Notes: generated by a model not told the origin, from the letters alone. A stretch of 64,000 nt of DNA from Gemmatimonadota bacterium (GCA_016713785.1 JADJOM010000001.1:841816-905815); one strand, 5' to 3'; positions 2,540-57,521 are shown, counted from the first letter of the stretch. A program made the numbers and translations.

Positions 2540-3277
2540 TCAGAGCATCAGGTGCGCCAGCTGCACCCCGGCCGGCGCCCCGCCGCTGGAGCCCGCCGGC
2601 TCCATGGTGAGCGCGGCCCCCATCACGTGCCGGGCATTGGGCGGCATCGGCAGGGTCAGGAAGGCGGGCGTCCGGCCGTCCGAGGGCACGGTGACGCTCC
2701 GGACCATCCCCGACTCGGTGATGAACCAGAACTGGCAGGTCTCGCCGGCGGGCGGCACCGGGAGCCCGTAGACCACGACGTTCCACCGATGGGTCCGCTC
2801 GTCCGCGAAGATCAGCAGCCCGCCCTGCCGGCCGTCCATCGCGATGCTCGCGTGGCGCACCATCGCGGCACCCCGGATGATGCCCAGCGTGTCGCGCACC
2901 ATCGCCAGCTCCTCCGCCAGGCGGGCCCGTTCGCCGGCCAGCTGGGTCTCGAAGGCACGGGTGGTCGCGAGCGCCCAGAACCAGGCACCCGCAGCCAGCA
3001 CCAGCGAGGCGGCGAGCGCCGCGGGCACCCACCACCGGGGCGCCCCCCGCCGTGCCCCGAGCGCGCCGGCCACCAGCCGCTGGTTGAGCCCGGGCCGCGG
3101 GGCCGCGGGCGGGAGCCCCATCGGCAGCCAGGCCAGGTCCCCTTCCAGCTGCTCCACCGCCTCGCGGCACTCGGCGCAGCCGGCCAGGTGCTCGTGGTAG
3201 GCGCGTTCCTCGTCGGGCGCGAGGGCCCGGGCCACGAACGCGGCGCGCTGCTCGACAAACCATGCATGCGGGTTCAT
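2540..3277 (-). CDS. anti-sigma factor, zf-HC2 N-terminus plus RskA-like periplasmic domain
   Basis: Start set at ATG 3277 (MNPHAWF), which overlaps the sigma gene's TGA (ATGA). The longer track ORF (to 3682) is the sigma gene read out of frame. HLAGCAECREAVEQL zinc-finger motif, one TM (WWVPAALAASLVLAAGAWFWAL), C-terminal RskA-like region. Confidence 0.85.
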   Translation of the reverse strand: MNPHAWFVEQRAAFVARALAPDEERAYHEHLAGCAECREAVEQLEGDLAWLPMGLPPAAPRPGLNQRLVAGALGARRGAPRWWVPAALAASLVLAAGAWFWALATTRAFETQLAGERARLAEELAMVRDTLGIIRGAAMVRHASIAMDGRQGGLLIFADERTHRWNVVVYGLPVPPAGETCQFWFITESGMVRSVTVPSDGRTPAFLTLPMPPNARHVMGAALTMEPAGSSGGAPAGVQLAHLML

Positions 3278-3921
3278 ACGACCCAATCCCTGATCGAGGC
3301 CAGCCCGGCGCGCAGCTTGTCGAAGGCAAGCCGCAGCCGGGTCTTCACGGTACCGAGCGGAACGCCGAGGCGTCCCGCGATCTCCGAATGGGTGAGCCCT
3401 TCGAAGTAGGCCAGCTGGACCGCCTCGCGCTGCTCCGGCGGCAGGGCCGCCAGCGCGTGGTGGACGGCGGTGTGCACGTGCCAGCCCGGGGCCGCGGATT
3501 CGTCCGGCTCCGTCGCGGCCACGCTCCCCGTACCCAGGGCGCCGTGCGCCTCCAGCCGCCGGACCTTCTCCACCTGGCGTCGTCGCGCGCGCAAGCGATC
3601 GACGGCGCGATTGCGCGTGATGCGCAGCAGCCACGGCACCAGCCGCCCGCTCGCGGCATCGAACAGGTCGATCCGGCGCCACGCGATGGTGAACGTCTCC
3701 TGCACGACCTCCTCCGCCTCGTCCCGGTCGGTGAGCATCGCCTCGGATACGGCCAGCAACCAGGGCGTGACCAGATCGACCAGCTCCACCAGGGCCCGTT
3801 CGTCACGGGCCCGGAGGCCGGCGAGCAGGCCACGCTCCCGCTCCGCGGCCAGCAGGCGCGGACCGGAAGACTCATCCCGTGGGGACGACCGTCGGAAATC
3901 GGGCACGGCCAAGAATGGCAC
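3274..3921 (-). CDS. ECF (sigma-70 family) RNA polymerase sigma factor
   Basis: Region 2 (EAEEVVQETFTIAWRRIDLFD, LVPWLLRITRNRAVDRLR). Region 4 (LPPEQREAVQLAYFEGLTHSEIAGRLGVPLGTVKTRLRLA). GTG start at 3921. Translationally coupled to the anti-sigma gene. Confidence 0.9.
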   Translation of the reverse strand: MPFLAVPDFRRSSPRDESSGPRLLAAERERGLLAGLRARDERALVELVDLVTPWLLAVSEAMLTDRDEAEEVVQETFTIAWRRIDLFDAASGRLVPWLLRITRNRAVDRLRARRRQVEKVRRLEAHGALGTGSVAATEPDESAAPGWHVHTAVHHALAALPPEQREAVQLAYFEGLTHSEIAGRLGVPLGTVKTRLRLAFDKLRAGLASIRDWVV

Positions 3922-3972
3922 CCCGGCCGTCCCGGGCGCCAGAGCCGGAACGCAACGCGCCCCGCTGCAGGC

Positions 3973-3996
3973 GGGACGATCCCGGGGGATCGTCCC
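3973..3996 (-). terminator. perfect GC-rich inverted repeat (GGGACGATCCC-gg-GGGATCGTCCC) downstream of the TonB-receptor/lipoprotein genes
   Basis: Read directly: 11-nt arms at 3973-3983 and 3986-3996, between the lipoprotein stop (4040) and the sigma start (3921). No U-tract. Could instead be a protein-binding palindrome. Confidence 0.35.
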
Positions 3997-4039
3997 TGTC
4001 CCTGCAACGAGGCGCGCGGGCGGCCGGATCTCCCGGCGG

Positions 4040-4465
4040 CTACTGGATCAGGAACGCCAGCGAGAAGGTGTGCTCATCGGCCAGCGCGTCATGCCCGTAT
4101 CCGATGGCGACGGTGCCCGTGTCGCCGGCGGTGGCGGTGACCGCGACCCCATGCCGGAAGTGGTGCGCGGCATCCATCGTGGCGGTGAGTCCCGCCGCGG
4201 GGGTGAAGGTGAGCAGGCTGAAGTGCTCGTCCTCCGCCACGTCGAGGTTCTCGTCGGACTGGTTGTAGAACGTCACCCGGACGCTGTCAGTGCCGCCGGT
4301 GGTCAGGCGGAGCGTGTCATCGGTGACGAGGGTCCCATTCACGGCGACCTCGAACCGGACCGGGGTGTGGTCCTCGGCGGCCGGCTCGTTGCTGTCGCTG
4401 CACGCCGCAAGGACGGCGCCGACGGCGAGGAGGGCTAGGCGGGGAAGGCGGTGGGGCATCGACAT
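4040..4465 (-). CDS. hypothetical lipoprotein (His-containing, beta-rich)
   Basis: Lipobox LAVGAVLAAC-S. Located 19 nt downstream of the TonB-dependent receptor on the same strand. No family recognised. Confidence 0.6.
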   Translation of the reverse strand: MSMPHRLPRLALLAVGAVLAACSDSNEPAAEDHTPVRFEVAVNGTLVTDDTLRLTTGGTDSVRVTFYNQSDENLDVAEDEHFSLLTFTPAAGLTATMDAAHHFRHGVAVTATAGDTGTVAIGYGHDALADEHTFSLAFLIQ

Positions 4466-4483: not shown

Positions 4484-6541
4484 TCAGGATCCAGCGAGGG
4501 GAAGGCGCAGCGCGGCCCGGAGGGTCCGCGGCGCGCCGGGGTTGATGAAGCCGGACGCGCGGATCTCCGGGTACCGCGCGTTGAACAGGTTCTGCAGGTC
4601 GAGGTCGAGCGTGCCGAGGCGGCGCAGCCGGAGCGACGCGCCGATGTCGGAGATGGCATACGGGCGGGTCCGTACCCCCGGCTCGCCGATCGGGGTGAAG
4701 GGCCCGGTCCACCGGAGCTGCGCCCGGCCCTCGACGGTCGCGGTGGCCTGCAGGGTGAGCTCCGCGCGGCCGTGGTAGCGGGCGACGCCCGGCACCCTGG
4801 CGCCCGGGGTGAGCGGGACGTCATGGAAGCTGGGGCGCGGCGGCGCCACCAGGCTCCCGGGGGTGACCAGCGTCCTGGCGGATTCGCCGGTCGCGCCGGT
4901 GATCCTGGCATCGTTGAACGTGCCCTCCACCGCCAGCCGGACCCGCGGGGTGATGGCCACGCCGATGGCTCCCGAGATCCCGCGACGCCGGCTGGTCCCG
5001 GCGTCGGAGAGCTGCAGGGAGACGGGATCGAGGATGCGCTCATTCCGCGCGTTGGTCTGGAACAGGGAGAGCTGCCCGGAGACGCGCTCGGCGGTCACCT
5101 GGAGCCCGAGCTCACCGGACCAGGCCGTGACCAGCGGCTGCTTGGGATCGGAGATCGTGCCGATGGCGCTGCGGAACCCGCGGCTGGCGGTGGCCACGGC
5201 GCTCCACGGCCCGCCGAGCAGCAGCCGGGCCCCCACCTTGGGGGAGACGGCTCCCTGCGTCCGGGAGTGGAACGGATCACCGGGAATCGCCTGGTCGCGG
5301 ACGCGCACGTGCAGCAGGTCGGCGCGCAGGCCCAGGTCGTACTGCAGCCGGCCGAACACGAATCCGCGCCACCGGGCATAGGCCCCGCCCTGCCGGAACC
5401 CGCCGTCGTTGAGCTGGCGGGTCTCGACCCGGTCCCGCCGCACGGTCCCGTAGAGCTGGTAGTCGTCCCAATCCGCGCGGCCGTCGAGGCCCAGCGCCAG
5501 GTCGCCCGCGCCCGCCGGGGCCCGCCAGCTGCCGGCGAAGCCCACCGCAGCGCGGCGGTCCCGTTCCTCCTGCTGCGCCACCACGCCATCCTCGGCGATG
5601 GACAGGAACACCGTGGACCGGACGCCCTGGGCCCAGCCCTGGAGGTCGAGCTGGGTGCCGTTGGCGAGCGGGTGGAGCAGGGTGCCCTGCAGCACCACCC
5701 GCCCGCCGGACCCGCCGTCGGTGCGGTCGGCGGCGCGGGTCAGGCGATGCGCGTTGTAGTCTGCCACCGACAGGAAACCGGGTGAGTCCCACCCCGCCCC
5801 GTAGGCGGCCAGGCCGCCCTCGAGCCGGGTGCGGCTCCCGAGCCGCCGCCAGCCGCGCAGCAGGACATTGCCGAGCCAGCTGGCGCTGTTGTCCCGCCAG
5901 CCCCCTTCCCGTCGGGCATCCACCGCCACCAGGCTCCCGCCGCTGGCCCCCCGCCGCCCGGTGCGGAACCACCCCGCGGCCTCCCCGGCGCTGGACCCGC
6001 CGATCGACGCCGCGCTGCCGGTGGCGTCGACCATCGTGTGCACCTCCACGGCTCCCGCAAAGGCGAAGTTCCCGTAGAGCGGACTCGCGCTGCCATGGAT
6101 CACCCGGAGCCCGCCCACCGCCGCCGCCGAGAGGATGCTCCAGTCGGCGTAGCCTTCGACGTGTCCGTGCAGCGGCAGGTTCATGGGGACCCCGTCGAGG
6201 ACGAGCAGCACGTCCGAGGAGTGGTCGGAGGTGAAGCCGCGTATCACCACGTCCGACGCCCAGCCCGGCCCCTGTCCCTGCTCGTGCACCTCGAGGCCGG
6301 CGGCGCGCCGCACCAGGTCATAGGCATTGGCCGCCTGTTGCTTCTGCACCACCGCGCCGGGCACCGACACCACCAGCTCGGGGGGCGGCACGGCACGGAT
6401 CCGCTCCGTGGTCACCTCGAGCGTCTCGAGGACCACGGGCACGGTGTCCCGCGCCTGCCCGGCGAGCGGGGTGGCGGCGAGGACGAGGACGAGCAGCGCC
6501 CCGGCCCGGAGGACCGGCGCGCCAGGCACCAGCGGGGCCAT
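4484..6541 (-). CDS. TonB-dependent outer-membrane receptor
   Basis: Signal peptide. Plug-domain motifs (LETLEVTTER, DLVRRAAGLEV, VVIRGF, VLLVLDGVPMN, PLYGNFAFAGAVEVHT). Long Gly/aromatic-rich beta-barrel region. 685 aa. Confidence 0.9.
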   Translation of the reverse strand: MAPLVPGAPVLRAGALLVLVLAATPLAGQARDTVPVVLETLEVTTERIRAVPPPELVVSVPGAVVQKQQAANAYDLVRRAAGLEVHEQGQGPGWASDVVIRGFTSDHSSDVLLVLDGVPMNLPLHGHVEGYADWSILSAAAVGGLRVIHGSASPLYGNFAFAGAVEVHTMVDATGSAASIGGSSAGEAAGWFRTGRRGASGGSLVAVDARREGGWRDNSASWLGNVLLRGWRRLGSRTRLEGGLAAYGAGWDSPGFLSVADYNAHRLTRAADRTDGGSGGRVVLQGTLLHPLANGTQLDLQGWAQGVRSTVFLSIAEDGVVAQQEERDRRAAVGFAGSWRAPAGAGDLALGLDGRADWDDYQLYGTVRRDRVETRQLNDGGFRQGGAYARWRGFVFGRLQYDLGLRADLLHVRVRDQAIPGDPFHSRTQGAVSPKVGARLLLGGPWSAVATASRGFRSAIGTISDPKQPLVTAWSGELGLQVTAERVSGQLSLFQTNARNERILDPVSLQLSDAGTSRRRGISGAIGVAITPRVRLAVEGTFNDARITGATGESARTLVTPGSLVAPPRPSFHDVPLTPGARVPGVARYHGRAELTLQATATVEGRAQLRWTGPFTPIGEPGVRTRPYAISDIGASLRLRRLGTLDLDLQNLFNARYPEIRASGFINPGAPRTLRAALRLPLAGS

Positions 6542-6622
6542 GGCAAGCCTTGCGAATGTCAGGCGAGTGTCACGTTGCGCGCCGCGCCAGGATGGCGCGC
6601 GCGCACACGGACGGGAACGGGA

Positions 6623-6988
6623 TCAGGCGGGGGAGGGAGGGCCGACGGAGAAGGGAAGGAGCCGGGGCGCCACACGCGGCGGCGCGGCGAGGCGGGGGGC
6701 ATACGCGGCGGCACGGGCGGGGATGATCGTCGTGAGCTGGACGGCCCGCGACGGCGCGCCGGCGAGGGCGGCACCATGGCACGCGCCGAGGCAGGTGCAG
6801 GGTCCCGGATGGTCGTTGGGCTGGGCCGGCGCGGGGCCATGGTGCGCGCCGTGGAGGCCGCTGGGCGCCGCGTGGTCGTGGGCCGGACAATTGTGCGCCC
6901 CACTGCCGTCGCTCAGCTGGAGCGCGAGCAGCAGCAGCACCTGCCAGCAGGCGAGGGCTCCGCGGAGGGGGCGCAGGGCAACCGTCAT
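6623..6988 (-). CDS. small secreted His/Cys-rich protein, DUF2946-like (putative periplasmic metal-binding)
   Basis: ATG at 6988 (MTVALRPLRGALACWQVLLLLALQL signal-like), inside the longer track ORF 6623..7465. HNCPAHDH, HGAHHG, CTCLGACHG, and a Pro/Ala-rich C-terminus ending GPPSPA as in DUF2946 proteins (from memory). Located 81 nt upstream of the receptor. Confidence 0.55.
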   Translation of the reverse strand: MTVALRPLRGALACWQVLLLLALQLSDGSGAHNCPAHDHAAPSGLHGAHHGPAPAQPNDHPGPCTCLGACHGAALAGAPSRAVQLTTIIPARAAAYAPRLAAPPRVAPRLLPFSVGPPSPA

Positions 6989-7034
6989 GGCGCCAACGAT
7001 AGGGACGGTCCGGCTTGCGCGCAAATGACCGGGG

Positions 7035-8216
7035 TCACCGCTGGACATCCCGGGCGTCGCGGCCCCCGCGCCCCTGCAGGCGCGCGGCCGCCTCGACGAG
7101 CAGGTCATCCGTCTTGCAGAAGACGAACCGGACCAGGCGCTGGCCGAGTTCCGGTCGGCTGAAGAAGGACGACCCCGGCACCGGGGCCACCCCGCGCTCC
7201 CGCGCCAGCCACTCGGCGAAGGCCGTGTCCGGAAGATCCGACAGCCCGGAGAAGTCGGCCAGGATGTAGTAGGCGCCCTCCGGCAGGGTGCACCGGAAGC
7301 CGGCCCGTGCCAGCGCGTCGCCCAGCAGGTCGCGGCGGCGGAGGTACCCGGCGGCCATGCCGTCGTAGTAGTCCGCGCCCAGCTGGTCGAGGGCGGTGGC
7401 GAAGGCCTCCTGCAGCGGCGCCGGGGCGCCGACGGTGAGGAAGTCGTGCACCTTGCGGATGGCATCGGTGGCGCCGGCCGGGGCCACGATCGTGCCCAGG
7501 CGCCAGCCGGTGATGCTGAAGGTCTTGCTCGCGCCGCTGATCGTCACCGTCCGCTCGCGCATGCCCGGGAGCGTGGCGATCGGGACGTGAGGCGCGCCGT
7601 AGCGGATGTGCTCGTAGATCTCGTCGGTGATGGCCCAGGCGTCGTGTCGCTGGCACAGCACCGCGATCCCCTCGAGCTCCTCGCGGGTGAGCACCCGGCC
7701 GCTCGGGTTGGCCGGTGTGTTGACGATGATTGCCCGGGTGCGCGGGCCGAACGCCCGGGCCAGGCGGTCGAGGTCGAGTGGCGCCCCGGGCAGGAGCGGC
7801 ACGAACACCGGCGCGGCGTCGCAGAGGATGGTGTCGGGCCCGTAGTTCTCGTAGAACGGCTCGAAGACGATCACCTCGTCGCCCGGGTCGATCAGCGCCA
7901 TCAGCGTGGCGATCATCGCCTCGGTGGCGCCGCAGGTCACGGTCACCTCGGCGTCGGGATCCACGGCCATCCCGTACCAGGCGTGGTACTTCCGCGCCAC
8001 CGCCTCGCGGAGCCGCCGGGCGCCCCAGGTGATGGCGTACTGGTTGATATTGTCGTGGATGGCCCGCGCCGCGGCCTCCTTGAGGAGGTCGGGCGCGGGG
8101 AAGTTGGGGAAGCCCTGCGCCAGGTTGATCGCGCCGTGCTGGGCGGCCAGGCGCGACATCCCGCGAATCACCGACTCACGGAAGGCGTGGGTCCGTCGGG
8201 CGGGGGGAGGGGTCAT
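7035..8216 (-). CDS. PLP-dependent aminotransferase, class I/II (MtnE / kynurenine-aminotransferase-like)
   Basis: INLAQGFPNFPAP, NQYAITWG, PLP-lysine motif SGASKTFSITGWRLG. 393 aa. Confidence 0.9.
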   Translation of the reverse strand: MTPPPARRTHAFRESVIRGMSRLAAQHGAINLAQGFPNFPAPDLLKEAAARAIHDNINQYAITWGARRLREAVARKYHAWYGMAVDPDAEVTVTCGATEAMIATLMALIDPGDEVIVFEPFYENYGPDTILCDAAPVFVPLLPGAPLDLDRLARAFGPRTRAIIVNTPANPSGRVLTREELEGIAVLCQRHDAWAITDEIYEHIRYGAPHVPIATLPGMRERTVTISGASKTFSITGWRLGTIVAPAGATDAIRKVHDFLTVGAPAPLQEAFATALDQLGADYYDGMAAGYLRRRDLLGDALARAGFRCTLPEGAYYILADFSGLSDLPDTAFAEWLARERGVAPVPGSSFFSRPELGQRLVRFVFCKTDDLLVEAAARLQGRGGRDARDVQR

Positions 8217-19688: not shown

Positions 19689-19800
19689 GCCTGTACGATA
19701 GGACGGCCGGCCCGGCCGACCAAGGCCGCGCCGCTCCCGCCGTGCAAATCCCGGCCCCCGGCGCATCCCCTCGCCGTCTCCACAGGCCAATGAGGGTCCC

Positions 19801-21981
19801 ATGCATCGCACGCTCCTGGGCGCCGTCGCGCTCCTGTTGTCCGCCGCCCCCGTCGCGGCGCAGGGCTGGATCGAAGTCGACCGCCCCCGCACCACCGTTC
19901 CCGTGTCGCCATCCATCGTCCGCGTCGGCTCCGAGGTCCGCACCGTCATCGAGGGGCGGATTGCGCGCGTCGAGGTGGAGGAGCGGTTCCGCAACACCGG
20001 CGGCGGCCTCGCGGAAGGCACCTACCTGTACCCACTCCCCGGGGAGGCGGTGTTCCAGAACTTCTCGCTCTGGATGGGGGAACAGGAGATGAAGGGCGAG
20101 ATGATGAACGCCGAACAGGCTCGCGGGATCTATGAGGAGATCGTGCGGCGGCAGAAGGACCCGGCGCTGCTCACCCTCGCCGGCCACGGCCTGGTGCGGG
20201 CGCAGGTATTCCCCATTCAGCCGGGCGAGACCCGCAAGGTGGTGCTCCGCTACACCCAGCTGCTCGACCGCGCCGGCGACGCGCTGCGCGTCCGCTACGC
20301 CCTGGGTGTCCGTGGCGGCGAGGGCGGCACCTGGCGCCTCACCAGCCGCGGGGAGGACACCTACGGCACCCCCTACTCACCGACCCATGCCCTCACCGTC
20401 CGCCGGGAGCGCGGGACCCTCGAGGTGAACGTGGATACCCATGGCGGCGGCGACATCGAGCTGCTGCTCCCGCTCCGACGCGGACTGGTCGGCACCAGCG
20501 TGCTCACCAGCGCCCCCGGTGGCGAGGACGGGTACGCCATGCTGCTGCTGGCGCCGGCGGAAGCAGAGGAGGGCCCGGTCGTCCCGCGCGACGTCGCGTT
20601 CGTGGTGGATGTCTCCGGCTCGATGTCCGGCCAGAAGATGGACCAGGCCCGGGCTGCGCTGCGTCAGGCCCTCGGTACCCTGCGCGGCGGTGACCGCTTC
20701 CGCCTGGTGGCCTTCAGCTCCGGCGTGCGACACTTCCGCGACGGCTGGGCGCCGGTCACCCCCGAGGTGCTGGCCGAGGCGCGTGGGTTCATCGATGGCC
20801 TCAACGCGGATGGTGGCACCAACATCGCGGGCGCGCTCGATGCCGTGCTGGGCACCTCGGTGCCCGAGGGACGGCTGCCCCTGGTGCTCTTCATGACCGA
20901 CGGGATTCCCTCCGTGGGCGAGGAGCAGCCGGACCGCATCGCCGCGCTGGCGGCGAGCCGGGTGGGACGCGCCCGCCTCTTCACCGTGGGCGTGGGGACC
21001 GACGTCAACACCTACCTGCTCGACCGGCTGGCCAAGGAGGGGCATGGTGCCGCGGAGTACGTGGCGCCCGAGGCGGACGTCGAGGTGGCCATCGGAACGC
21101 TGATGAGCAAGCTGCGCCGCCCCGCGCTGGTGAACCTGCGCATCGTGGAGAGCCCGGTGGCCCTGCGCGAACTCTCCCCCGCGCAGCTGCCGGACCTGTT
21201 CTATGGCGAGGAACTGGTGATCTTCGGGCGCTACCGGGGCCAGGGGTCGGGCACCGTGGTCTTCGAGGGCGAGCGCAACGGGCGCCGCGAGCGCTTCACG
21301 GCCCAGGCCACCTTCCCCGCGACCGCCCACGAGAACGAGTTCATCCCGCGGCTCTGGGCCGCGCGCCGGATCGGCGACCTGAACCGCCAGCTTCGCCTGG
21401 AAGGCCAGTCCGACGCCCTCATCCGCGAGATCCGCGAACTCGGCCTGCGCTACGGCATCCTCACGGAGTACACCTCGTACCTGGTGCAGGAGCCGACCCT
21501 GGCCATGAACCAGCCCGGGACACCCGGCACGCGCCAGCCGCGCCGTGACGTCATGCCCATGGCCACCCCGGCCCCCGCCGCCCAGACCGGCGCGGCCTCG
21601 TTCGAGGCCGCCAAGGCCAGCGGACAGCTCTCCCGCGCCACCAGCCTCGCCGATGCCGAAGTGGCGGCGGATGCCCGCCTCAATACGCTGACTGGCGGCA
21701 GCCGCGAGGTGCGCCGGGCCGGCGGCCGGGTGTTCACCCGGACGGGGACCGTCTGGACGGACGTGGGCCACGGCGATAGCCTCCGGGTGCTCGACATCGC
21801 CCCCTACAGCGCCGCGTACTTTGCCCTGACCCGCGCGCTGCCCGAGCTGGCGCCCAGTCTTGGCGTCGGCGAGGAGCTGCTCATCGCGGGCCGGCGCGCC
21901 AGCCTCAAGGTCGCCGCGGGCGGCCGGACCACGATCAGCGATGCAGAACTCAAGGCGTTCGTGCGGGACTTCCGTGGATAA
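19801..21981 (+). CDS. secreted VIT domain + von Willebrand factor A (vWA) domain protein
   Basis: Signal peptide MHRTLLGAVALLLSAAPVAAQG. VIT-like region (ARVEVEERFRNTGGGLAEGTYLYPLPGEAVFQNFSLWMGEQEMKGEM...RRQKDPALL). vWA with MIDAS DxSxS (FVVDVSGSMSG) and TDGIPS. ~250-aa uncharacterised C-terminal region. Confidence 0.9.
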   Translation: MHRTLLGAVALLLSAAPVAAQGWIEVDRPRTTVPVSPSIVRVGSEVRTVIEGRIARVEVEERFRNTGGGLAEGTYLYPLPGEAVFQNFSLWMGEQEMKGEMMNAEQARGIYEEIVRRQKDPALLTLAGHGLVRAQVFPIQPGETRKVVLRYTQLLDRAGDALRVRYALGVRGGEGGTWRLTSRGEDTYGTPYSPTHALTVRRERGTLEVNVDTHGGGDIELLLPLRRGLVGTSVLTSAPGGEDGYAMLLLAPAEAEEGPVVPRDVAFVVDVSGSMSGQKMDQARAALRQALGTLRGGDRFRLVAFSSGVRHFRDGWAPVTPEVLAEARGFIDGLNADGGTNIAGALDAVLGTSVPEGRLPLVLFMTDGIPSVGEEQPDRIAALAASRVGRARLFTVGVGTDVNTYLLDRLAKEGHGAAEYVAPEADVEVAIGTLMSKLRRPALVNLRIVESPVALRELSPAQLPDLFYGEELVIFGRYRGQGSGTVVFEGERNGRRERFTAQATFPATAHENEFIPRLWAARRIGDLNRQLRLEGQSDALIREIRELGLRYGILTEYTSYLVQEPTLAMNQPGTPGTRQPRRDVMPMATPAPAAQTGAASFEAAKASGQLSRATSLADAEVAADARLNTLTGGSREVRRAGGRVFTRTGTVWTDVGHGDSLRVLDIAPYSAAYFALTRALPELAPSLGVGEELLIAGRRASLKVAAGGRTTISDAELKAFVRDFRG

Positions 21982-21984
21982 CCG

Positions 21985-22488
21985 ATGAGCCAGGTACCGA
22001 TCGAAGAGCTGTTCGCCCAGTTCCACCAGCCGCTCGTGCGGATGCTGTATCGCCGCACGGGCGACCAGGACCGGGCCGAGGACCTCGCGGCGGAGGTGTT
22101 CGCCCGCGCCCTCGCCTCCCCACCGGACAATCCGCGCCCCTGGCTGTTCGCGGTGGCGCTCAACCTGGTGCGGGACGATGGGCGCCGGGCGGTGCGCCAG
22201 GGACGGCGGCTGCAGCTGCTCAAGGGGGAGAGCGCGACCAGCGCCAGCCCCGCGGACGAGGACTACGAACGGACCCAGAAGACCCGGGCCGTCCAGGCCG
22301 CCCTGGCCGAGATGCGGGACCTCGATCGCGAGGTGCTGCTGCTCAAGGCCGAGGGCTTTGACTACGACGAGATCGCGGCCGCCACCGGCCTCGCCAAGGG
22401 CGCGATCGGCACCACGATCTGCCGCGCCCGCAAGCGGCTGGTGGAACTGGTCCGCGCGCAGGAGAAGGATCGCCATGTCGCATCTTGA
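21985..22488 (+). CDS. ECF RNA polymerase sigma factor
   Basis: ATG 3 nt after the VIT-vWA stop. Region 2 (DRAEDLAAEVFARAL, PWLFAVALNLVRD). Region 4 (REVLLLKAEGFDYDEIAAATGLAKGAIGTTICRARKRL). Confidence 0.85.
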   Translation: MSQVPIEELFAQFHQPLVRMLYRRTGDQDRAEDLAAEVFARALASPPDNPRPWLFAVALNLVRDDGRRAVRQGRRLQLLKGESATSASPADEDYERTQKTRAVQAALAEMRDLDREVLLLKAEGFDYDEIAAATGLAKGAIGTTICRARKRLVELVRAQEKDRHVAS

Positions 22489-23542
22489 TGAAGGCCAGCT
22501 GACCTGCCTGCTCGACGACGAGCTCACGGCCGACGAGCGCCGCGCCGCCGAGGCGCACCTCGGCGCGTGCGCGGAGTGCCGGCGGCTGTACGAGGAGATC
22601 CGGGCCTTCTCCGGCGAGGCCGATGCGCTGGTCACCGCCGTCGAGCTGCCCCGGCAGCCGGCCGCCCCGCCGGCGCGCTCCGCTCAGCCCACCACGGCCG
22701 GGACCTCCCGGACGCCGCTGCCGTGGCGATCACTCGCCTGGGCCGCGACGGTGATCCTGGCCATCGGGCTGGGCTACTCGATGCGGACCCGGCCGACGGG
22801 CATGGCCCAGAGCGACATCGGAACGGACAAGGGCGTGGCGGAGCGGGAGATCGCCCCGCCGGCCACCGCCCCGGTGCCTCCGGAGTCCGGCCCGCCGGCC
22901 GTGGGATTCACCCTGCCGCGGCCGGCCGACGCCCCCCCGCCGGCGGCGCCGGCGCAGGCGCGCTCGGAAGAGGCGGCTACTCCGGCGGCGACGCCGGCCC
23001 CGACCGCCCTGCGTCGCGACAACCGGCTCACGGAACTGGCGTCCGACGCAACGGCCCCCGTGGCAGGGGCCACCGGGAACCTGGACCGAACACCGGCCGT
23101 ATCGACCAAGCAGGCCCCCGCCGAGGCCCGGTCCATCGCCGCACCTGTTGTGGCGTTCCATCAGGTGGCCATGGAGGAGGCCGTGAGAACCCTCGGTGGG
23201 ACAATCCGTCTTCTGGATGGCCTCAAGCCCCAGCGGGTGCTCACCGGGCCGGGAACCCTGGTCCCCGGCGCCAGCGCCGACTTGCCGGTGGTTCGGGTGG
23301 TCTACGACGATCCCCCAGGCCGGGAGCTCTGGCTGGACCAACAGCGACTCCGGGTGGCCGAGGGGGTCCGGACGGGACTGACGGCAAGCGCGGCCCCCCT
23401 GCTGGTGGGGGACACCGTGGCAGCGCCCGCGGCCCAAGGCATGCAGAGTGTCCGGTGGATGGACCAAGCTGGTTTCAGACTTGCACTTACGGGATTTCTC
23501 CCGACCGACTCCCTGCGGGCACTCCTCCGGAGGGTCGAGTAG
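22475..23542 (+). CDS. anti-sigma factor (zf-HC2, single TM, Pro/Ala-rich linker, C-terminal periplasmic domain)
   Basis: ATG 22475 overlaps the sigma 3' end by 14 nt. AEAHLGACAECRRLYEEI. TM WRSLAWAATVILAIGLGYSM. C-terminal ~140 aa (VVRVVYDDPPGRELWLDQQRL...) resembles DUF4367-type anti-sigma sensor domains (tentative). Confidence 0.75.
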   Translation: MSHLDEGQLTCLLDDELTADERRAAEAHLGACAECRRLYEEIRAFSGEADALVTAVELPRQPAAPPARSAQPTTAGTSRTPLPWRSLAWAATVILAIGLGYSMRTRPTGMAQSDIGTDKGVAEREIAPPATAPVPPESGPPAVGFTLPRPADAPPPAAPAQARSEEAATPAATPAPTALRRDNRLTELASDATAPVAGATGNLDRTPAVSTKQAPAEARSIAAPVVAFHQVAMEEAVRTLGGTIRLLDGLKPQRVLTGPGTLVPGASADLPVVRVVYDDPPGRELWLDQQRLRVAEGVRTGLTASAAPLLVGDTVAAPAAQGMQSVRWMDQAGFRLALTGFLPTDSLRALLRRVE

Positions 23543-23579
23543 CGGGCGGCGGCTGGCCCCGGAAGGTAGATTCCACGGC

Positions 23580-24569
23580 ATGTTTCACCTGAACGACCGG
23601 CTCCTCGAGAAGCTCATCGACGGGAGCGCCAGCGGCTCCGACGTGCACCGCATCCGTAACCACACGGAGTCGTGCCGTGCGTGTGCCCGCCGGCTCGAGG
23701 AGTGGCGGGACAACTACCAGGAGCTCGACCAGCACTTTCCCGAGCTGGCCACCGAGAGCGGTCCCGCCGCCACGGTGACCCCCGGCGGCTTGGTGCTGAT
23801 GCCGTCGGTGGAGGAGCCGAGGCGGCGCTGGGAGCTGGAGCTCTCGACCCTGCTGTGGATCGCCACGGTGCTGATGGCGCTGCTGGTGGGATACGGCGCC
23901 AGTCGGCTGCGCCAGCCCAACGAAGGGATGGCCGTGGCCAATCGCGGGACGACCCAGGCCCCGCCCCCGGCCCCGCGCCCGCCCGCGGCGGGTCTCGCGG
24001 CCGGAGGCGCTGCGGCGGTGCCGCCGATAGAGCCCGTGCCGCAACCCACCGCGACCTCGACCCGCCCGAACCCCGTGCCAGCGGCCACGGCGTCCCCGAG
24101 CCGGCCCACCCCGCCGCGGGCCAGCCCGTCGTCGGCCCCCGCGAGCGCCCCAACCACCGAGCCCAAGCCGCTCACGGTCTCCCCCCGTTTTCGTGCGGTG
24201 GGCGCGCGTGAGGCGAGCCTGCGCCTCGGGGGGCGTCTGCGCATGGTGGCGGGGCTCGAGCCGGATCACATCGAGGTCGGACCCGCGACTGCGGTCCCAG
24301 GCGCGCAGGCCGGACTCGACGTGGTGCGCGTGGTCTACCGCACCGCCGACGGCGGCCGGATCCTGGTGGACCAGCAGCTGATCCCCGCCGACTCTTCCGG
24401 GTTCCGTCCGATCGACGACCCCACGCTCGAGAGCGGCGAGACGGCCTACGGCACCTCCCCGACCGGGGTCTCGGTGGCCACCTGGCTGGACGAGGAGGGC
24501 TATCGCATCTCGGTGGTGGCCCAGGCCCCCGTGGATTCCCTCAAGCGGCTGGTACAGCGGGTCGAGTAG
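23580..24569 (+). CDS. second anti-sigma-like factor, paralogue of 22475..23542, with no sigma gene of its own
   Basis: ATG 23580 (MFHLNDRLLEKLIDG). Cys/His motif HTESCRACARRLEEW. TM LSTLLWIATVLMALLVGYGA. Pro/Ala linker. C-terminal domain aligns with the upstream paralogue (VVRVVYRTADGGRILVDQQL..., ...VDSLKRLVQRVE vs ...TDSLRALLRRVE). Confidence 0.7.
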   Translation: MFHLNDRLLEKLIDGSASGSDVHRIRNHTESCRACARRLEEWRDNYQELDQHFPELATESGPAATVTPGGLVLMPSVEEPRRRWELELSTLLWIATVLMALLVGYGASRLRQPNEGMAVANRGTTQAPPPAPRPPAAGLAAGGAAAVPPIEPVPQPTATSTRPNPVPAATASPSRPTPPRASPSSAPASAPTTEPKPLTVSPRFRAVGAREASLRLGGRLRMVAGLEPDHIEVGPATAVPGAQAGLDVVRVVYRTADGGRILVDQQLIPADSSGFRPIDDPTLESGETAYGTSPTGVSVATWLDEEGYRISVVAQAPVDSLKRLVQRVE

Positions 24570-24666
24570 CCTCCGGCAGTGATCCGCGCCGCAATGTGAC
24601 ACCGGTTACGGCACGGCTCTCCCGGCCCACCCACCATTGGAGCCTCGCACCCCTACGAGGCCCCTC

Positions 24667-25218
24667 ATGCCGTCCCGTCACCTCCGGGCAGCCTGCCTGC
24701 TCGCCCTCCCGCTGTTGTCGCTCCCCGCCACCCTCGCCGCCCAGGGGGACATCCGTCTCGGCCTTGGCGCCGGGATCACCATGCCGCTGCGCAGCTACGG
24801 CGACGTGGTGGACAAGGGATGGATGGGCAACGCGAGCCTGACCTTCTTCCCGGCGGCCTCGGCCGCCCTCGGCTTCCGGCTCGATGGGTTCTACGGCCGC
24901 AACAGCCTGAGCGCGATCAGCGGGCGGCAGACCCAGGTGGGCGGCACCGCCAACCTCGTGCTGCAGTTCGGTGCCCGGCGGTCACCCAACCGGTTCTACG
25001 TCTTCGGCGGTGGGGGCTACGTGAAGACCACGAACTCGAGCCCCAACTTCGGCAAGCTGAGCGACACCAACCCCGCCCTCAACGGCGGCGCCGGGTTCAG
25101 CCTCGGAGCCCGGTCGCTGGCCCTGTTCGTGGAGGCGCGGTACATCAACGTGTACACCGACGGGGTCAAGCCCCAGTACGCCCCCCTCATGGCCGGCGTA
25201 ACCTTCGGCGGATTCTAG
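24667..25218 (+). CDS. small outer-membrane beta-barrel protein (OmpW/OmpA-barrel-like)
   Basis: ATG 24667 (MPSRHLRAACLLALPLLSLPATLAAQ); the track start at 24637 is a TTG. Alternating amphipathic strands. Terminal ...MAGVTFGGF with C-terminal Phe. Confidence 0.7.
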   Translation: MPSRHLRAACLLALPLLSLPATLAAQGDIRLGLGAGITMPLRSYGDVVDKGWMGNASLTFFPAASAALGFRLDGFYGRNSLSAISGRQTQVGGTANLVLQFGARRSPNRFYVFGGGGYVKTTNSSPNFGKLSDTNPALNGGAGFSLGARSLALFVEARYINVYTDGVKPQYAPLMAGVTFGGF

Positions 25219-25235
25219 CCGTACGCTAGTTTCCG

Positions 25236-25275
25236 CTGCCCGTCCGCCGGCCACGACGGCCGGATGCCCGGGCAG
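25236..25275 (+). terminator. compound GC hairpin between the two small barrel genes (possible attenuating terminator)
   Basis: CTGCCCG(25236-42)...CCGGCC-acgac-GGCCGG...CGGGCAG(25269-75). 7-bp and 6-bp stems with an internal loop. No U-tract. Confidence 0.35.
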
Positions 25276-25296
25276 ATCTCACAGAGGAGCAACACA

Positions 25297-25842
25297 ATGA
25301 AGCGTGTCGTACTCTCGATGGTAGCCGTCGCCCTGGCGGCCCAGGTGTCCTCCACCGCCCTCGAGGCACAGTCGAAGCTCTCCTTCGGCGCGGGGGGCGG
25401 CCTGACACTGCCGCTCGGCGATTTCAATGACGTCGCCAAGCTCGGCTGGCACGGCCTGGCCGTGATCGGTTATGCGCCATCGGCCTCACCGGTCGGCTTC
25501 CGTGGTGACTTCATGTACGCCCAGAACAGCATCGATGGCGCGGACGGCAAGACCAAGCTCGCCGGGGGCCTGGTGAACGTGACCTACGCCTTCCAGAGCA
25601 AGGGCTCGATCAAGCCGTACCTGATCGGTGGCCTGGGCCTCTTCAACGCGAAGGTCGACATCACCGGGTTCGGCTCGGACAGCGAGACCAAGCTGGCCGC
25701 GGGTGGCGGGCTCGGCCTCAAGTTCCGGGCGGGCTCGGACGCGAGCATCTTTGCCGAAAGCCGGTTCATCAACGTCTTCACCTCGGACAATTCAACCAAC
25801 TTCATTCCGCTGACGGTCGGCATCCAGTTCGGCACCAGGTAG
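25297..25842 (+). CDS. small outer-membrane beta-barrel protein, paralogue of 24667..25218
   Basis: ATG 25297 (MKRVVLSMVAVALAAQVSSTALEAQ), preceded by GAGGAG. Aligns with the upstream barrel (GAGGGLTLPLGDF.D..KLGW.G, ESRFINVFT vs EARYINVYT). Confidence 0.75.
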   Translation: MKRVVLSMVAVALAAQVSSTALEAQSKLSFGAGGGLTLPLGDFNDVAKLGWHGLAVIGYAPSASPVGFRGDFMYAQNSIDGADGKTKLAGGLVNVTYAFQSKGSIKPYLIGGLGLFNAKVDITGFGSDSETKLAAGGGLGLKFRAGSDASIFAESRFINVFTSDNSTNFIPLTVGIQFGTR

Positions 25843-25861
25843 GCCGCGCGCCGCACCTGGG

Positions 25862-25891
25862 CGAGGGGCGGGCCATCCGGCCCGCCCCTCG
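25862..25891. terminator. bidirectional intrinsic-terminator-like hairpin (13-bp perfect stem, 4-nt loop)
   Basis: CGAGGGGCGGGCC-atcc-GGCCCGCCCCTCG, read directly. Lies between the convergent stops at 25842 (+) and 25892 (-). Confidence 0.6.
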
Positions 25892-27118
25892 TCACGTCCG
25901 GGCCGCCCCCAGACCCGCGGTGCGCCCGGTGGCCCAGGCCCACGCGAAGTTGTAGCCGCCGATCGGGCCGAACGCGTCCAGGACCTCGCCGGCAAAGTGC
26001 AGGCGCGGCACCCGGCGGCTCTGCAGGGTGGCCGGATCCACGTCACCCAGCGCCACGCCGCCCCCCGTCACCTCCGCCTTCTTGTAGCCCTCGTCCCCGG
26101 TCCAGGGGAGCGGATAGCGCGCCAGCCGCTCCACCAGCGCGCGGCGGTCCTCGCGACGCAGCTGGGCCAGCTGGGTGTCGGCAGGGATGCCGCACTCCTG
26201 GAGGAGGACCTCCGCCAGGCGAGCGGGGAGCTCTTCCTGCACTCGCCGCAGGACACCCTGGGCGGTGCGGGCAGTCAGACGCGCCTCCCACGCACCGGCG
26301 TCGAGGACGCCCCACTGCACCGTGACGCGGGCCCGGCCGGGACCGTCGCGGTACTGGGCGGGGAGGTGCGAGATGTCGAGCACCGCCGGCCCGCTGTACC
26401 CCCGGTGGGTGAAGAGAAACCCGCCCTGGGCGCGGGCCACATGATCGCCGGCGCGCGCCTCGATGGTCACGTCGAGGGAGAGGCCGGACAGCGCCGCATG
26501 GGCGGCGGGCTGCGCCAGCAGCGGGGTGAGCGCGGGATAGGTCGGCACGAGGGCGTGCCCCAGCTCGCGGGCCAGGCGGAGCCCGAAGCCGTCACTGCCG
26601 GTCGCGGGCACCGACAGGCCGCCGGTGGCGATCACCAGTGCCCGCGCCTCCAGGCTCCGGCCCGAGGCGCTCTCCAGCCGCCAGCCGTTGGGTGCCGGTT
26701 CGGCGCGGGCGAGGGTCCACCCGAAGCGGCACTCCGCCCCCGCGGCGCGCGCGGCCTCCACCAGCCGGTCGCGCACCTCGCGCGCGCGGTTGGAGGCGGG
26801 AAAGAGCTTCCCGCTCCCGGCCTCGAGAGCGAGCGGCAGGCCCAGGTCGCCCTCGAAAAAGGCCCGCTGCTCGCGCAGCGGCCAGGCGGCGAGGAGCCGC
26901 CGCACCAGGTGCGCCGGGGCCGCGGAGACGAAGCGCGCCGGATCCAGCACTGCGGGGAGGATGTTGCACCGCCCCCCGCCGCTGATCAGGATCTTGCGGC
27001 CGCCATCGGCGGTGCCGTCGACCAGCACCACGGGCCCGCCGGCCCGGGCGGCGTGGATGGCCGCCATCAGACCGGCGGCGCCGGCGCCGACGATTACCAC
27101 CGGCCGGTCAGTCGCCAC
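25892..27118 (-). CDS. HI0933/BaiN-family NAD(P)/FAD-dependent oxidoreductase
   Basis: GTG 27118 (VATDRPVVIVGAGAAGLMAAIHAARAG Rossmann motif). GGRKILISGGGRCN. C-terminal FAGEVLDAFGPIGGYNFAWAWATG. The rest of track ORF 25892..28735 is antisense to the lyase gene. Confidence 0.85.
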   Translation of the reverse strand: MATDRPVVIVGAGAAGLMAAIHAARAGGPVVLVDGTADGGRKILISGGGRCNILPAVLDPARFVSAAPAHLVRRLLAAWPLREQRAFFEGDLGLPLALEAGSGKLFPASNRAREVRDRLVEAARAAGAECRFGWTLARAEPAPNGWRLESASGRSLEARALVIATGGLSVPATGSDGFGLRLARELGHALVPTYPALTPLLAQPAAHAALSGLSLDVTIEARAGDHVARAQGGFLFTHRGYSGPAVLDISHLPAQYRDGPGRARVTVQWGVLDAGAWEARLTARTAQGVLRRVQEELPARLAEVLLQECGIPADTQLAQLRREDRRALVERLARYPLPWTGDEGYKKAEVTGGGVALGDVDPATLQSRRVPRLHFAGEVLDAFGPIGGYNFAWAWATGRTAGLGAART

Positions 27119-27235: not shown

Positions 27236-28618
27236 ATGTCCATGAAGACGATCATCGAGCCGTTCCGCATCAAGTCCGTCGAGCCGATCCGCCTGACCAC
27301 CCCGGCCGAGCGGGAGGAGCGGTTGCGGGAGGCCGCCTACAATGCCTTCCTGCTCCGCTCGGAGGACGTGCTGATCGACCTGCTGACCGACAGCGGCACC
27401 TCGGCGATGTCGAGCGAGCAGTGGGCGTCGCTGATGCGTGGGGATGAATCGTACGCCGGCAGCCCCTCGTGGTACCGGTTCGAGAAGGCGGTGCAGGATA
27501 TCTTCGGCTTCCAGCACGTGCTCCCCACCCACCAGGGGCGCGCGGCGGAGCGGATCCTCTTCTCGGTGCTCTGCAAGCCGGGCGACGTGGTGCCGAGCAA
27601 CACCCACTTCGACACCACCCGGGCGAACGTGGAGTTCACCGGGGCCCGCGCCGTGGACCTGGTCATCCCCGAGGGCCGGCAGCCGCAGGCGGTGCACCCC
27701 TTCAAGGGCAACATGGACGTGGCGGCGCTGGAGCGGCTCATCGCCGAGGTGGGGCGCGAGAAGATCCCGCTGTGCATGCTGACGGTGACCAACAACAGCG
27801 GGGGCGGGCAGCCGGTGTCGATGGCCAACATCCGCGCCGTGTCGGCGGTGTGCCGGGCGCACGGCATCCCGCTGTACATCGACGCCTGCCGGTTCGCCGA
27901 GAACGCCTACTTCATCAAGCTGCGCGAGGCCGGCTACGCGGACCGCTCGCCGCTGGCGATCGCGCGGGAGATGTTCTCCCACGCCGACGGCGCGACGATG
28001 TCGGCCAAGAAGGACGGCCTGGCCAACATCGGCGGGTTCCTGGCCAGCAACAACGCGCAGGTGGCGGTGCAGGAGCGCAACCTGCTGATCCTCACCGAGG
28101 GCTTTCCCACCTACGGCGGACTGGCGGGCCGCGACCTCGAGGCCATCGCGGTCGGGCTGCACGAGGCGCTGGCGGAAGACTACCTGCTCTACCGGATCAC
28201 CTCGACGACCTACCTGGGGCGGCACATCTCCGAGGCCGGCGTGCCGATCGTGCAGCCGCCGGGAGGCCACGCCGTGTACATCGATGCGGCGGCGCTCTTT
28301 CCCCAGATCCCGCCACACGAACTGCCGGGCCAGGCCCTGGTGGTGGAGCTGTACCGGGAGGCGGGCATCCGGGCGGTGGAGATCGGGACGGTGATGTTCG
28401 GCCGGCGGGACCCGGCCACGGGAGCGGAGACGACCGCCCCGATGGAGCTGGTGCGGCTGGCCATTCCGCGGCGGGTCTACACCCAGAGCCACATCGACTA
28501 CGTGGTCGAGGCCATCCTCAACGTGTACGCCCGCCGGGCCGCGGTGCGCGGCTACCGGTTCGTGGAGCAGGCGCCCTTCCTGCGGCACTTCACCGCGCGC
28601 TTCGCTCCGCTGGGCTGA
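27236..28618 (+). CDS. tnaA: tryptophanase / tyrosine phenol-lyase family beta-eliminating lyase (more TnaA-like motifs)
   Basis: ATG 27236 (MSMKTIIEPFRIKSVEP). DLLTDSGT, PTHQGRAAE, FDTTRAN, GGQPVSMANIRAV, RFAENAYFIK, PLP-Lys MSAKKDGLANIGGFL, EGFPTYGGLAGRD, LRHFTARF. The TnaA versus TPL call is not decidable by eye. Confidence 0.85.
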   Translation: MSMKTIIEPFRIKSVEPIRLTTPAEREERLREAAYNAFLLRSEDVLIDLLTDSGTSAMSSEQWASLMRGDESYAGSPSWYRFEKAVQDIFGFQHVLPTHQGRAAERILFSVLCKPGDVVPSNTHFDTTRANVEFTGARAVDLVIPEGRQPQAVHPFKGNMDVAALERLIAEVGREKIPLCMLTVTNNSGGGQPVSMANIRAVSAVCRAHGIPLYIDACRFAENAYFIKLREAGYADRSPLAIAREMFSHADGATMSAKKDGLANIGGFLASNNAQVAVQERNLLILTEGFPTYGGLAGRDLEAIAVGLHEALAEDYLLYRITSTTYLGRHISEAGVPIVQPPGGHAVYIDAAALFPQIPPHELPGQALVVELYREAGIRAVEIGTVMFGRRDPATGAETTAPMELVRLAIPRRVYTQSHIDYVVEAILNVYARRAAVRGYRFVEQAPFLRHFTARFAPLG

Positions 28619-45416: not shown

Positions 45417-45673
45417 GCTACCTCCACCGTAGGGTCAGCCCGCCCGGGACGCCGTGTCCTGTCGCGGCACCGCCGGGCCTGCCTGTGCAAGGGGCGGGCG
45501 CGGCCTGCGCCTCCCGGCGATCTTCCGGAGCTTCATGTCCAGCAACAACTTGCAGGCCGGGGACCGAGGCCCTGCCCGGGTCCGGCCCCCCACGATTCGC
45601 TCCATCATGGATCGGGGCGGTACAATTCCCGCGCGGCGGCCGCGCCGACACGGTCGATCAACGATTGCCAGGG

Positions 45674-46228
45674 ATGGTGCGTATCTCCGCTGAGTCCGAC
45701 GCCGCCCTCATCGCCAGGGCCCAGGGTGGTGACCGTGACGCCTTCGGCGTGCTGGTCGGCCGCTACGGGCCCATGGTCCGGCGCCTGACCCGGGCGGTCC
45801 TCCACCATGGTGCCGACGCGGACGATGCCGCCCAGGATGCGTTCTTCTCCGCCTGGCAGGCCATCGATCGGTTCGATCCCGCGCAGACCCTCGGGCCCTG
45901 GCTGGCCCGCATCGCGGTGAACGCGGCGCGGGACCTGGTCCGGCGTCGCCGGGTCCGGGTCACCGAGCCGGTGCCGATGGACCGCGCCGACCTGGGTCCG
46001 CTGCCGGACCGGGCCGCCGAGGCCAGGGTGCAGCGGGGGCGGCTGGCGGCGGCGCTCGCATCCCTGCCGGAGCGGCAACGGCTGGTGGTGGTGCTGTTCG
46101 AGGTCGAGGGATACGCCCACGGCGAGATCGCCGGGCTGTTCGGCATCCCCGAGGGCACGGTGCGGTCGGAGCTGTTCCACGCCAAGCGAAAACTGCGTGC
46201 GGCGCTTGACGGACTGAGAGAGGAGTGA
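45674..46228 (+). CDS. ECF RNA polymerase sigma factor
   Basis: ATG 45674 (MVRISAESDAALIARAQGGDRDAF). Region 2 DDAAQDAFFSAWQAIDRFD and PWLARIAVNAARDL. Region 4 LPERQRLVVVLFEVEGYAHGEIAGLFGIPEGTVRSELFHAKRKL. Confidence 0.85.
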   Translation: MVRISAESDAALIARAQGGDRDAFGVLVGRYGPMVRRLTRAVLHHGADADDAAQDAFFSAWQAIDRFDPAQTLGPWLARIAVNAARDLVRRRRVRVTEPVPMDRADLGPLPDRAAEARVQRGRLAAALASLPERQRLVVVLFEVEGYAHGEIAGLFGIPEGTVRSELFHAKRKLRAALDGLREE

Positions 46229-56404: not shown

Positions 56405-56494
56405 GGAATCCTCCAGTGTAGGTGCGTGGGAGGTACGCCGGCTCCGGCCGGCCCGTTGGCCGCGCACCATCCCAACACTCCGGGCCGGGCCGAC

Positions 56495-56521: not shown

Positions 56522-56538
56522 CCGCGCCGGCCGAGGCG

Positions 56539-57520: not shown

Positions 57521-57521
57521 G

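Follow-up and report, generated by a model that had tools for sequence, protein, structure and literature searches.

What does an exported protein with a VIT domain and a von Willebrand factor A (vWA) domain do at the head of a gene cluster for a sigma factor and its anti-sigma factors? The question is raised by a stretch of 64,000 nt of DNA from a Gemmatimonadota bacterium (GCA_016713785.1, JADJOM010000001.1:841816-905815; referred to here at its full length as the window), in which six same-strand genes at 19801-25842 encode, in this order, a VIT-vWA protein, an extracytoplasmic function (ECF) sigma factor, two anti-sigma factors with a zf-HC2 domain or motif and two small outer-membrane beta-barrels. 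To our knowledge, bacterial VIT-vWA proteins have no established function. A previous reading of the DNA, made from the sequence alone, had proposed that the VIT-vWA protein is either the dedicated output of the sigma factor or a partner that the anti-sigma factors sense or use as a scaffold. The comparative analysis reported here leads us to consider the locus as probably an autoregulated ECF sigma/anti-sigma envelope-signalling operon, whose dedicated product and direct, conserved output is an exported VIT-vWA protein resembling the heavy chains of the human inter-alpha-inhibitor (ITIH).

A conserved trio and its promoter motif

All six genes called in the sequence-only reading are present on the plus strand with unchanged boundaries. 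The first one, encoding the 726-aa VIT-vWA protein (19801-21981, +), is followed by the gene for a 167-aa sigma factor (21985-22488, +), which starts 3 nt past the VIT-vWA stop (21981/21985). The 3' end of the sigma gene is overlapped by 14 nt, as reading of the sequence confirmed, by the gene for anti-sigma factor A (355 aa; 22475-23542, +), and the genes for anti-sigma factor B (329 aa; 23580-24569, +), barrel 1 (183 aa; 24667-25218, +) and barrel 2 (192 aa; 25264-25842, +) complete the cluster. The two paralogous pairs recognized earlier were recovered as well, with an identity of 37% between the C-terminal domains of the anti-sigma factors (E 6e-21) and of 34% between the barrels (E 5e-27). 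The tight spacing, a shared upstream motif and one closing hairpin uphold the view that the six genes form an operon. No internal terminator-like or sigma-70-like site was seen inside the cluster; a consensus scan, uninformative at 72% GC, found neither a sigma-70-type promoter nor a T-run terminator.

The conservation of this arrangement was examined by a locus scan with one genome per species, which yielded 80 loci whose VIT-vWA protein is 45-78% identical to the query. Nearly all of them are labelled Gemmatimonadota (Gemmatimonadales and Longimicrobiales); a single locus bears the label Thermoanaerobaculia, and the phylum is not named for two others ("uncultured bacterium" and "bacterium HR33"). 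The sigma gene lies directly 3' of the VIT-vWA gene and on the same strand in 69 of the 69 informative loci, that is, those that extend at least 700 nt further downstream. Where the sequence reaches far enough, the 3' end of the sigma gene is overlapped by a zf-HC2 anti-sigma gene, which was undetected in only a few loci, such as L054, L070 and L076. Around these three genes no other neighbour is conserved. Since only the first three genes are kept across the loci, the conserved unit is the trio of VIT-vWA protein, ECF sigma factor and zf-HC2 anti-sigma factor, and the window carries an expanded version of it. The cassette of six genes proposed before therefore holds for its first three members, whereas anti-sigma factor B and both barrels are restricted to the window and its closest relatives (L001-L005 and L024, with at least 66% identity). 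Conservation of the neighbourhood had been set in advance as a test on which the proposal could fail; the adjacency of VIT-vWA and sigma genes has passed it, and it recurs in a different order in other phyla.

A further small gene was observed between the VIT-vWA and sigma genes of L004 (~6610-7050), L005, L006, L007 and L024. It encodes a protein of ~145 aa with a lipoprotein-type signal (for example MRTTLLIALGLCGC...) and is absent from the window.

An ECF-type promoter motif is located upstream of the VIT-vWA gene at 19742-19770 (+). In it, GTGCAA (19742-19747) is separated by 16 nt from CATCCCC, which begins at 19764 (CATC at 19764-19767). A GAGGG ribosome-binding site follows after ~35 nt, and the distance to the ATG is 59 nt; no other site with a 16-nt spacer occurs in the window. 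The general form (T/C)GTGCAA-N16-C(G/A)TC(T/C)CC stands ~55-60 nt before the VIT-vWA ATG in 68 of the 77 Gemmatimonadota loci, always with a spacer of 16 nt, and 6 further loci have a version with one mismatch at this position. Apart from the motif, the upstream regions of these loci are unalignable. When both strands of the 1.03 Mb of these loci were searched, the 68 occurrences were all at this position and none elsewhere. In their standard shape, ECF promoters pair an AAC-like -35 element with a -10 element resembling CGTC. The mapped sigE promoters of Streptomyces coelicolor, for example, read GGCAAC-N17-CGTCTT (PMC6767563). We infer that the neighbouring sigma factor reads the GTGCAA-N16-C(G/A)TC promoter, and the VIT-vWA gene would thus be the first gene of an autoregulated operon.

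The Thermoanaerobaculia locus (L070, DATACC010000036.1) comes from a metagenome-assembled genome (MAG) assigned to the Acidobacteriota and shows a VIT-first trio together with a GTGCAAG-N16-CGTC motif; it represents either a mis-binned contig or a transfer of the operon.

Outside the Gemmatimonadota, the partnership is encountered in another gene order. In 80 metagenome loci sampled for distant VIT-vWA members, the neighbours most often conserved are an ECF sigma gene and a zf-HC2 anti-sigma gene, both immediately upstream of the VIT-vWA gene and in the order sigma, anti-sigma, VIT-vWA. This sigma-first order was present in 9 of the 42 distant loci with enough upstream sequence, and a sigma gene downstream of VIT-vWA in 0 of 64. 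The same trio was found for 3 of 4 further proteins that were looked up; the Planctomycetota locus L165 has no sigma neighbour. In L082, L094, L106/L162, L158, L164 and L166 the motif GGAATA-N15/16-TGTAT precedes the sigma gene and is repeated after the anti-sigma stop, before the VIT-vWA gene, which in L106/L162 is separated from the anti-sigma gene by ~415 nt of intergenic sequence; L143 carries a variant of the duplicated motif (GGAAC-N17-TGTCT). The GTGCAA motif of the Gemmatimonadota is absent from the sigma-first loci of other phyla. Likewise, the hidden Markov model (HMM) of the Gemmatimonadota anti-sigma C-terminal domain gave no match in the sigma-first anti-sigma factors, and BLAST between the anti-sigma factors of both gene orders found the zf-HC2 region alone in common. 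The partnership is thus kept under reordering, and the sigma factor's own motif has been copied before the VIT-vWA gene. Both constitute independent evidence and indicate that the VIT-vWA gene is a direct target of the sigma factor.

The proteins of the trio

The description of the first gene product as a signal-peptide-bearing VIT and vWA protein with an intact metal-ion-dependent adhesion site (MIDAS) was confirmed by Pfam and by alignment. The VIT domain covers residues 45-151 (72.9 bits) and the vWA domain residues 264-419 (VWA_3, 71.8 bits; VWA and VWA_2 also match). The protein carries the signal peptide MHRTLLGAVALLLSAAPVAAQ, with cleavage before GW, and both the signal peptide and the mature N-terminus (AQ/GWIE, the slash marking the cleavage site) are kept in all orthologs. 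The MIDAS residues D270, S272, S274, T340 and D367 are invariant in the family alignment (n=40). With its N-terminal VIT domain, its complete MIDAS (DxSxS...T...D) and a conserved C-terminal region, the protein belongs to the VIT-vWA/ITIH-like family. It is conserved over its full length, and relatives align from end to end. The C-terminal ~250 aa, previously regarded as unassigned, are better described as conserved throughout the family and lie partly within the structural match to ITIH1.

This match was obtained with an AlphaFold2 model (pLDDT 81, pTM 0.79; residues 561-590 disordered), for which Foldseek returned human inter-alpha-inhibitor heavy chain 1 as best match in the PDB (6fpy; E 1.5e-32, 571 columns). 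As modelled, the VIT-vWA protein is a full-length structural homolog of human ITIH1 (6fpy/6fpz), sharing at 18% identity the fold of the whole chain, the order of VIT then vWA and the MIDAS-bearing vWA domain. The TM-scores are moderate (0.43 and 0.51), which reflects either a different arrangement of the domains or imperfections of the model. In contrast to ITIH1, the protein is bacterial and predicted to be periplasmic, and no Pfam ITI_HC_C match was obtained. A motif for C-terminal cleavage and ester transfer of the ITIH type was not noticed in the protein, although no dedicated search for it was made. The sequence contains neither a lipobox nor a C-terminal sorting signal, and the protein is most simply taken as a Sec-exported periplasmic or envelope protein. 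Its fold and MIDAS suggest that it binds a ligand, either a protein or an envelope component, in a metal-dependent manner.

Clustering at 50% identity still leaves 5274 representatives of this very large family at E<=1e-30, and the names of its members span Zixibacteria, Planctomycetota, Verrucomicrobiae, Poribacteria, Caldiserica and Altiarchaeota. The full-length members P0324, P0328, P0331, P0369, P0377 and P0380 are labelled Candidatus Altiarchaeota or Altiarchaeales, and the family thus appears to extend to archaea.

The second gene product was correctly labelled as an ECF sigma factor, as both Pfam (Sigma70_r2, 36.6 bits; Sigma70_r4_2, 46.5 bits) and NCBIfam (TIGR02937, 54.2 against a cut-off of 42.9) confirm. 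Its length of 167 aa, the presence of regions 2 and 4 only and the score above the cut-off of the superfamily model place it in group 4, and none of the NCBIfam subfamily models reaches its cut-off. The Gemmatimonadota sigma factors form a clade of their own in a neighbour-joining tree.

Anti-sigma factors A and B are alike in architecture: a zf-HC2 domain is followed by one hydrophobic helix (~residues 85-105), a Pro/Ala-rich linker of ~120 residues and a C-terminal domain of ~125 residues. In A, the cytoplasmic zf-HC2 domain (H28-x3-C32-x2-C35) scores 24.6 bits against a cut-off of 22.2 and the transmembrane helix covers ~residues 84-103. B is a diverged paralog of A whose zf-HC2 score (18.6 bits) stays below the cut-off, the HxxxCxxC motif being nevertheless visible; the zf-HC2 label thus stands by profile for A and by motif only for B. 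The HxxxCxxC motif, the single transmembrane helix and the position of the gene next to that of the sigma factor are those of class I (zf-HC2/ASDI) anti-sigma factors.

The label "DUF4367-like" given earlier to the C-terminal domain of the anti-sigma factors was not confirmed: no HMM supports it, none of 25 members of the domain had a Pfam match, and no PDB sequence match was obtained. An AlphaFold2 model of the domain of A (pLDDT 88) shows a small alpha/beta half-barrel, whose best PDB match by Foldseek is RseB (2v43_B), a weak one (E 0.065, TM-score 0.45, 8% identity, probability 0.99). Within the domain D74 and D131 are invariant and D99 is present in at least 90% of the sequences. According to an iterated HMM, the domain stands at the anti-sigma C-terminus in 48 of the 54 loci with at least 2 kb of downstream sequence; the B-type domains form a separate clade.

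Output, co-sensor or neighbour

For the autoregulated operon proposed above, the following course of events may be envisaged. The zf-HC2 domain of the membrane-bound anti-sigma factor would hold the sigma factor in the cytoplasm, and the periplasmic C-terminal domain on its long Pro/Ala-rich tether would receive an envelope signal. The sigma factor would then be released, presumably by the kind of regulated proteolysis that acts on other class I anti-sigma factors, and in its free form would transcribe the operon from GTGCAA-N16-C(G/A)TC. VIT-vWA protein, sigma factor and anti-sigma factor would rise together, resulting in positive plus negative feedback. The VIT-vWA protein would be the effector, acting in the periplasm or envelope by binding its ligand through the MIDAS. 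In the subclade of the window, genes for a second, diverged anti-sigma factor and for both small outer-membrane barrels would have been added to this operon.

Of the two roles suggested by the sequence-only reading, that of a dedicated output of the sigma factor agrees with the operon-specific promoter and with the duplicated motif in the sigma-first loci. The role of a sensed or scaffolding partner gained no positive support, and the anti-sigma domains are not detectably related between the lineages. Several observations have to be set against the output role. The promoter was assigned solely from the shape and conservation of the motif, and L063, L072 and L078 lack it even if one mismatch is allowed. 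The sigma gene lies downstream of the VIT-vWA gene, which creates a bootstrapping problem if the promoter is purely sigma-dependent, and a basal promoter was not found. In the sigma-first locus L084 the GGAATA motif is present upstream of the sigma gene only. The sigma factors of both gene orders have no clear common clade, so that the association may have arisen more than once. Finally, the tight translational coupling of VIT-vWA and sigma genes in the Gemmatimonadota would also fit a stoichiometric regulatory partner.

The last point leads to the main rival explanation, which we consider unlikely. In this view the VIT-vWA protein would act chiefly in regulation, as a co-sensor or scaffold in the periplasm that contacts the C-terminal domain of the anti-sigma factor, perhaps via the MIDAS, and either modulates the stability of the anti-sigma factor (as RseB does for RseA) or relays a ligand signal (as FecA does to FecR). 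The VIT-vWA gene is linked to the sigma and anti-sigma genes in every Gemmatimonadota locus and is translationally coupled to the sigma gene, with a 3-nt gap or an overlap; the ~120-residue tether of the anti-sigma factor carries a conserved domain in which D74, D131 and D99 may serve as MIDAS ligands; and vWA domains fused to anti-sigma factors have been reported for ECF289 (PMC7826278). The periplasmic domains of the anti-sigma factors are, however, not detectably homologous between the lineages that share the VIT-vWA partner, whereas the VIT-vWA protein is conserved over its full length. In the sigma-first loci, moreover, the VIT-vWA gene is preceded by a separate copy of the promoter motif and in some cases by 300-400 nt of intergenic sequence, as is typical of a target gene. 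A co-sensor role would be compatible with the VIT-vWA gene also being a target of the sigma factor.

The additional genes of the window allow a different kind of input to be considered. Barrel 1 has a signal peptide, the C-terminal end ...TFGGF and an alternative TTG start at 24637, and is without a Pfam match; barrel 2, for which an internal ATG at 25297 is a possible start, matches OMP_b-brl (PF13505; 53.7 bits, residues 21-189). Neither matched OmpW at E<=0.1, which leaves the former label "OmpW-like" unsupported. It may be supposed that in this subclade anti-sigma factor B and the two barrels provide a separate input, each C-terminal domain docking on or sensing a barrel in a relay akin to cell-surface signalling, and the sigma factor integrating two outer-membrane signals. 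Two anti-sigma genes and two barrel genes do co-occur in the same subclade, L014 has one of each, and the Pro/Ala-rich tethers are, judged by their sequence, long enough to span to the outer membrane. We nevertheless regard this supposition as doubtful: it is weakened by the varying copy numbers in L005, where a single barrel accompanies two anti-sigma genes, and in L014, Pfam finds no plug or signalling domain in either barrel, and the barrels could be extra sigma-dependent envelope cargo. Most loci have the C-terminal domain without any barrel, so that the barrels are not needed for the core system.

Output and input might also be combined in the VIT-vWA protein itself, which, as an exported integrin- and ITIH-like protein, would engage the anti-sigma C-terminal domain or the barrels via the MIDAS whenever no envelope or extracellular ligand is bound, so that the switch would measure the ligand occupancy of its own product. 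We give little credence to this idea at present; if true, it would describe a bacterial "outside-in" adhesion-sensing circuit reaching from Gemmatimonadota to Zixibacteria-like and Verrucomicrobia-like lineages.

It is highly improbable, and largely refuted by the comparative data, that the clustering has no functional meaning, with VIT-vWA transcribed alone beside an ordinary ECF pair and the motif serving another regulator, since the VIT-vWA gene, although without a sigma neighbour in 33 of the 42 sampled loci outside the Gemmatimonadota and in the Planctomycetota locus L165, keeps this neighbour in 69 of 69 loci over a deep divergence and after reordering in other phyla, and since the motif shows the -35/-10 layout of an ECF promoter, a spacer of invariant length and an exclusive position, and the sigma motif is duplicated in the sigma-first loci.

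Known systems and other features of the window

The autoregulated operon that we favour shares with the RpoE-RseA-RseB system of Escherichia coli and with SigE of S. coelicolor a group 4 sigma factor limited to regions 2 and 4 and a co-transcribed single-pass HxxxCxxC anti-sigma factor whose gene overlaps the sigma 3' end. As in canonical ECF operons, AAC-type -35 and CGTC-type -10 elements precede the operon. Unlike in these, the promoter-proximal gene is that of a 726-aa exported VIT-vWA protein and not that of the sigma factor; the sigma factor has only distant relatives among the characterized ECF sigma factors, SigE of Mycobacterium tuberculosis being both the best match and the closest solved relative at only 46.7 bits; the periplasmic domain of the anti-sigma factor belongs to a family without a Pfam model; the promoter is unusually specific; and the same partnership exists in several phyla. 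In contrast to the RpoE system, the cluster is without genes of the RseB, DegS or RseP type. The resemblance of the modelled anti-sigma C-terminal domain to RseB/MucB and LolA-like domains is the weak one described above; the domain has no sequence-profile match and, unlike RseB and MucB, is fused to the anti-sigma factor instead of forming a separate protein.

The closest published parallel for the vWA domain concerns ECF289, in which a vWA-DUF3520 moiety is fused to the anti-sigma factor in a heavy-metal context (Casas-Pastor et al.; PMC7826278). Both systems place a vWA domain on the extracytoplasmic side of an ECF/anti-sigma system. In our case, however, it resides on a protein of its own, which has a signal peptide and an N-terminal VIT domain but lacks a DUF3520 match, the anti-sigma factor has a different C-terminal domain without vWA, and nothing of a heavy-metal kind was seen in the cluster. 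With the vWA domain unfused and DUF3520 absent, an assignment to the ECF289-type vWA anti-sigma factors was rejected.

The best NCBIfam match of the VIT-vWA protein is TIGR03788, "marine proteobacterial sortase target protein", which aligns over residues 195-568 and shares the VIT-vWA core. It was rejected as a sortase target of this type, since the score of 292.1 bits compares with a cut-off of 551.65 and the C-terminus (...KAFVRDFRG) is without LPXTG. It also differs from other sorted VIT-vWA proteins (targets of XrtN, MSEP-CTERM and PEP-CTERM systems) in having no CTERM signal and in its partner, which is a sigma/anti-sigma pair and not a sortase or exosortase. An anti-phage defence system was likewise rejected, the five non-sigma proteins of the cluster being without a PADLOC match.

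No paper on an ECF system with a VIT-vWA partner was found, although the supplement of the ECF classification, which lay outside the search, may list such a context without a function; the main text of that classification mentions vWA for ECF289 only (PMC7826278). The VWA genes in the paper on Azospirillum RpoE6 are unrelated, and the eLife paper on conflict systems leaves VIT, ECF and sigma factors unmentioned.

One branch of the VIT-vWA family is now tied to a dedicated regulator and to a precisely defined, highly specific promoter. This offers experimental handles, since the VIT-vWA gene could be switched on by deletion of the anti-sigma gene or overexpression of the sigma factor, and the inducing signal could be sought with a GTGCAA-N16-CGTC reporter. 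Gemmatimonadota are abundant in soil, and few regulators of this phylum have been studied. A phylum-wide ECF module has been defined in them, whose partnership is kept in other phyla despite the reordering of its genes.

The window has a GC content of 70-75% throughout, and the nearest relatives of its proteins are named as proteins of Gemmatimonadales or Gemmatimonadota MAGs. Three further ECF sigma genes are located in it, and the GTGCAA-N16-CRTC motif is absent at all three. The first (3277-4047, -) adjoins the gene of a TonB-dependent receptor (4484-6622, -), the second (45374-46225, +) lies upstream of that of a TolC-like OEP protein (46934-48274), and the third (56422-57150, +) lies upstream of a weakly Metal_resist-like open reading frame (ORF; 57501-57977) and of the gene for a 1649-aa CarboxypepD_reg and OMP_b-brl_4 protein (58522-63471). 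No Rfam match was obtained in the window.

The cluster is flanked upstream by a divergent GNAT acetyltransferase gene and downstream by a convergent HI0933-like gene on the minus strand, both of them housekeeping genes unrelated to it. Between the operon and the convergent gene stands the GC-rich closing hairpin (25860-25893, no strand assigned), which had been noticed before and was recovered with a stem of 15 pairs including one G-U. Its folding energy is -45.5 kcal/mol (z = -3.87), a value reached by 0 of 200 shuffled sequences. No T run follows it, and the consensus terminator scan finds nothing there. Terminator hairpins without a T run are common in high-GC genomes, and the hairpin is probably a bidirectional terminator of this kind.

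Very long spurious ORFs over real genes are expected at 72% GC. The long overlapping ORFs at 20377-22635 (-), 22567-23592 (+), 23487-24602 (-) and similar ones were rejected as such artefacts, the codon-position GC pattern of genes being absent from them. Downstream of the cluster, two long ORFs on opposite strands overlap (947 aa on the minus and 873 aa on the plus strand), with real domains in different halves at 25895-27100 (-; HI0933-like) and 27377-28618 (+; Beta_elim_lyase); the true HI0933-like and Beta_elim_lyase genes are therefore shorter than the ORFs and overlap little.

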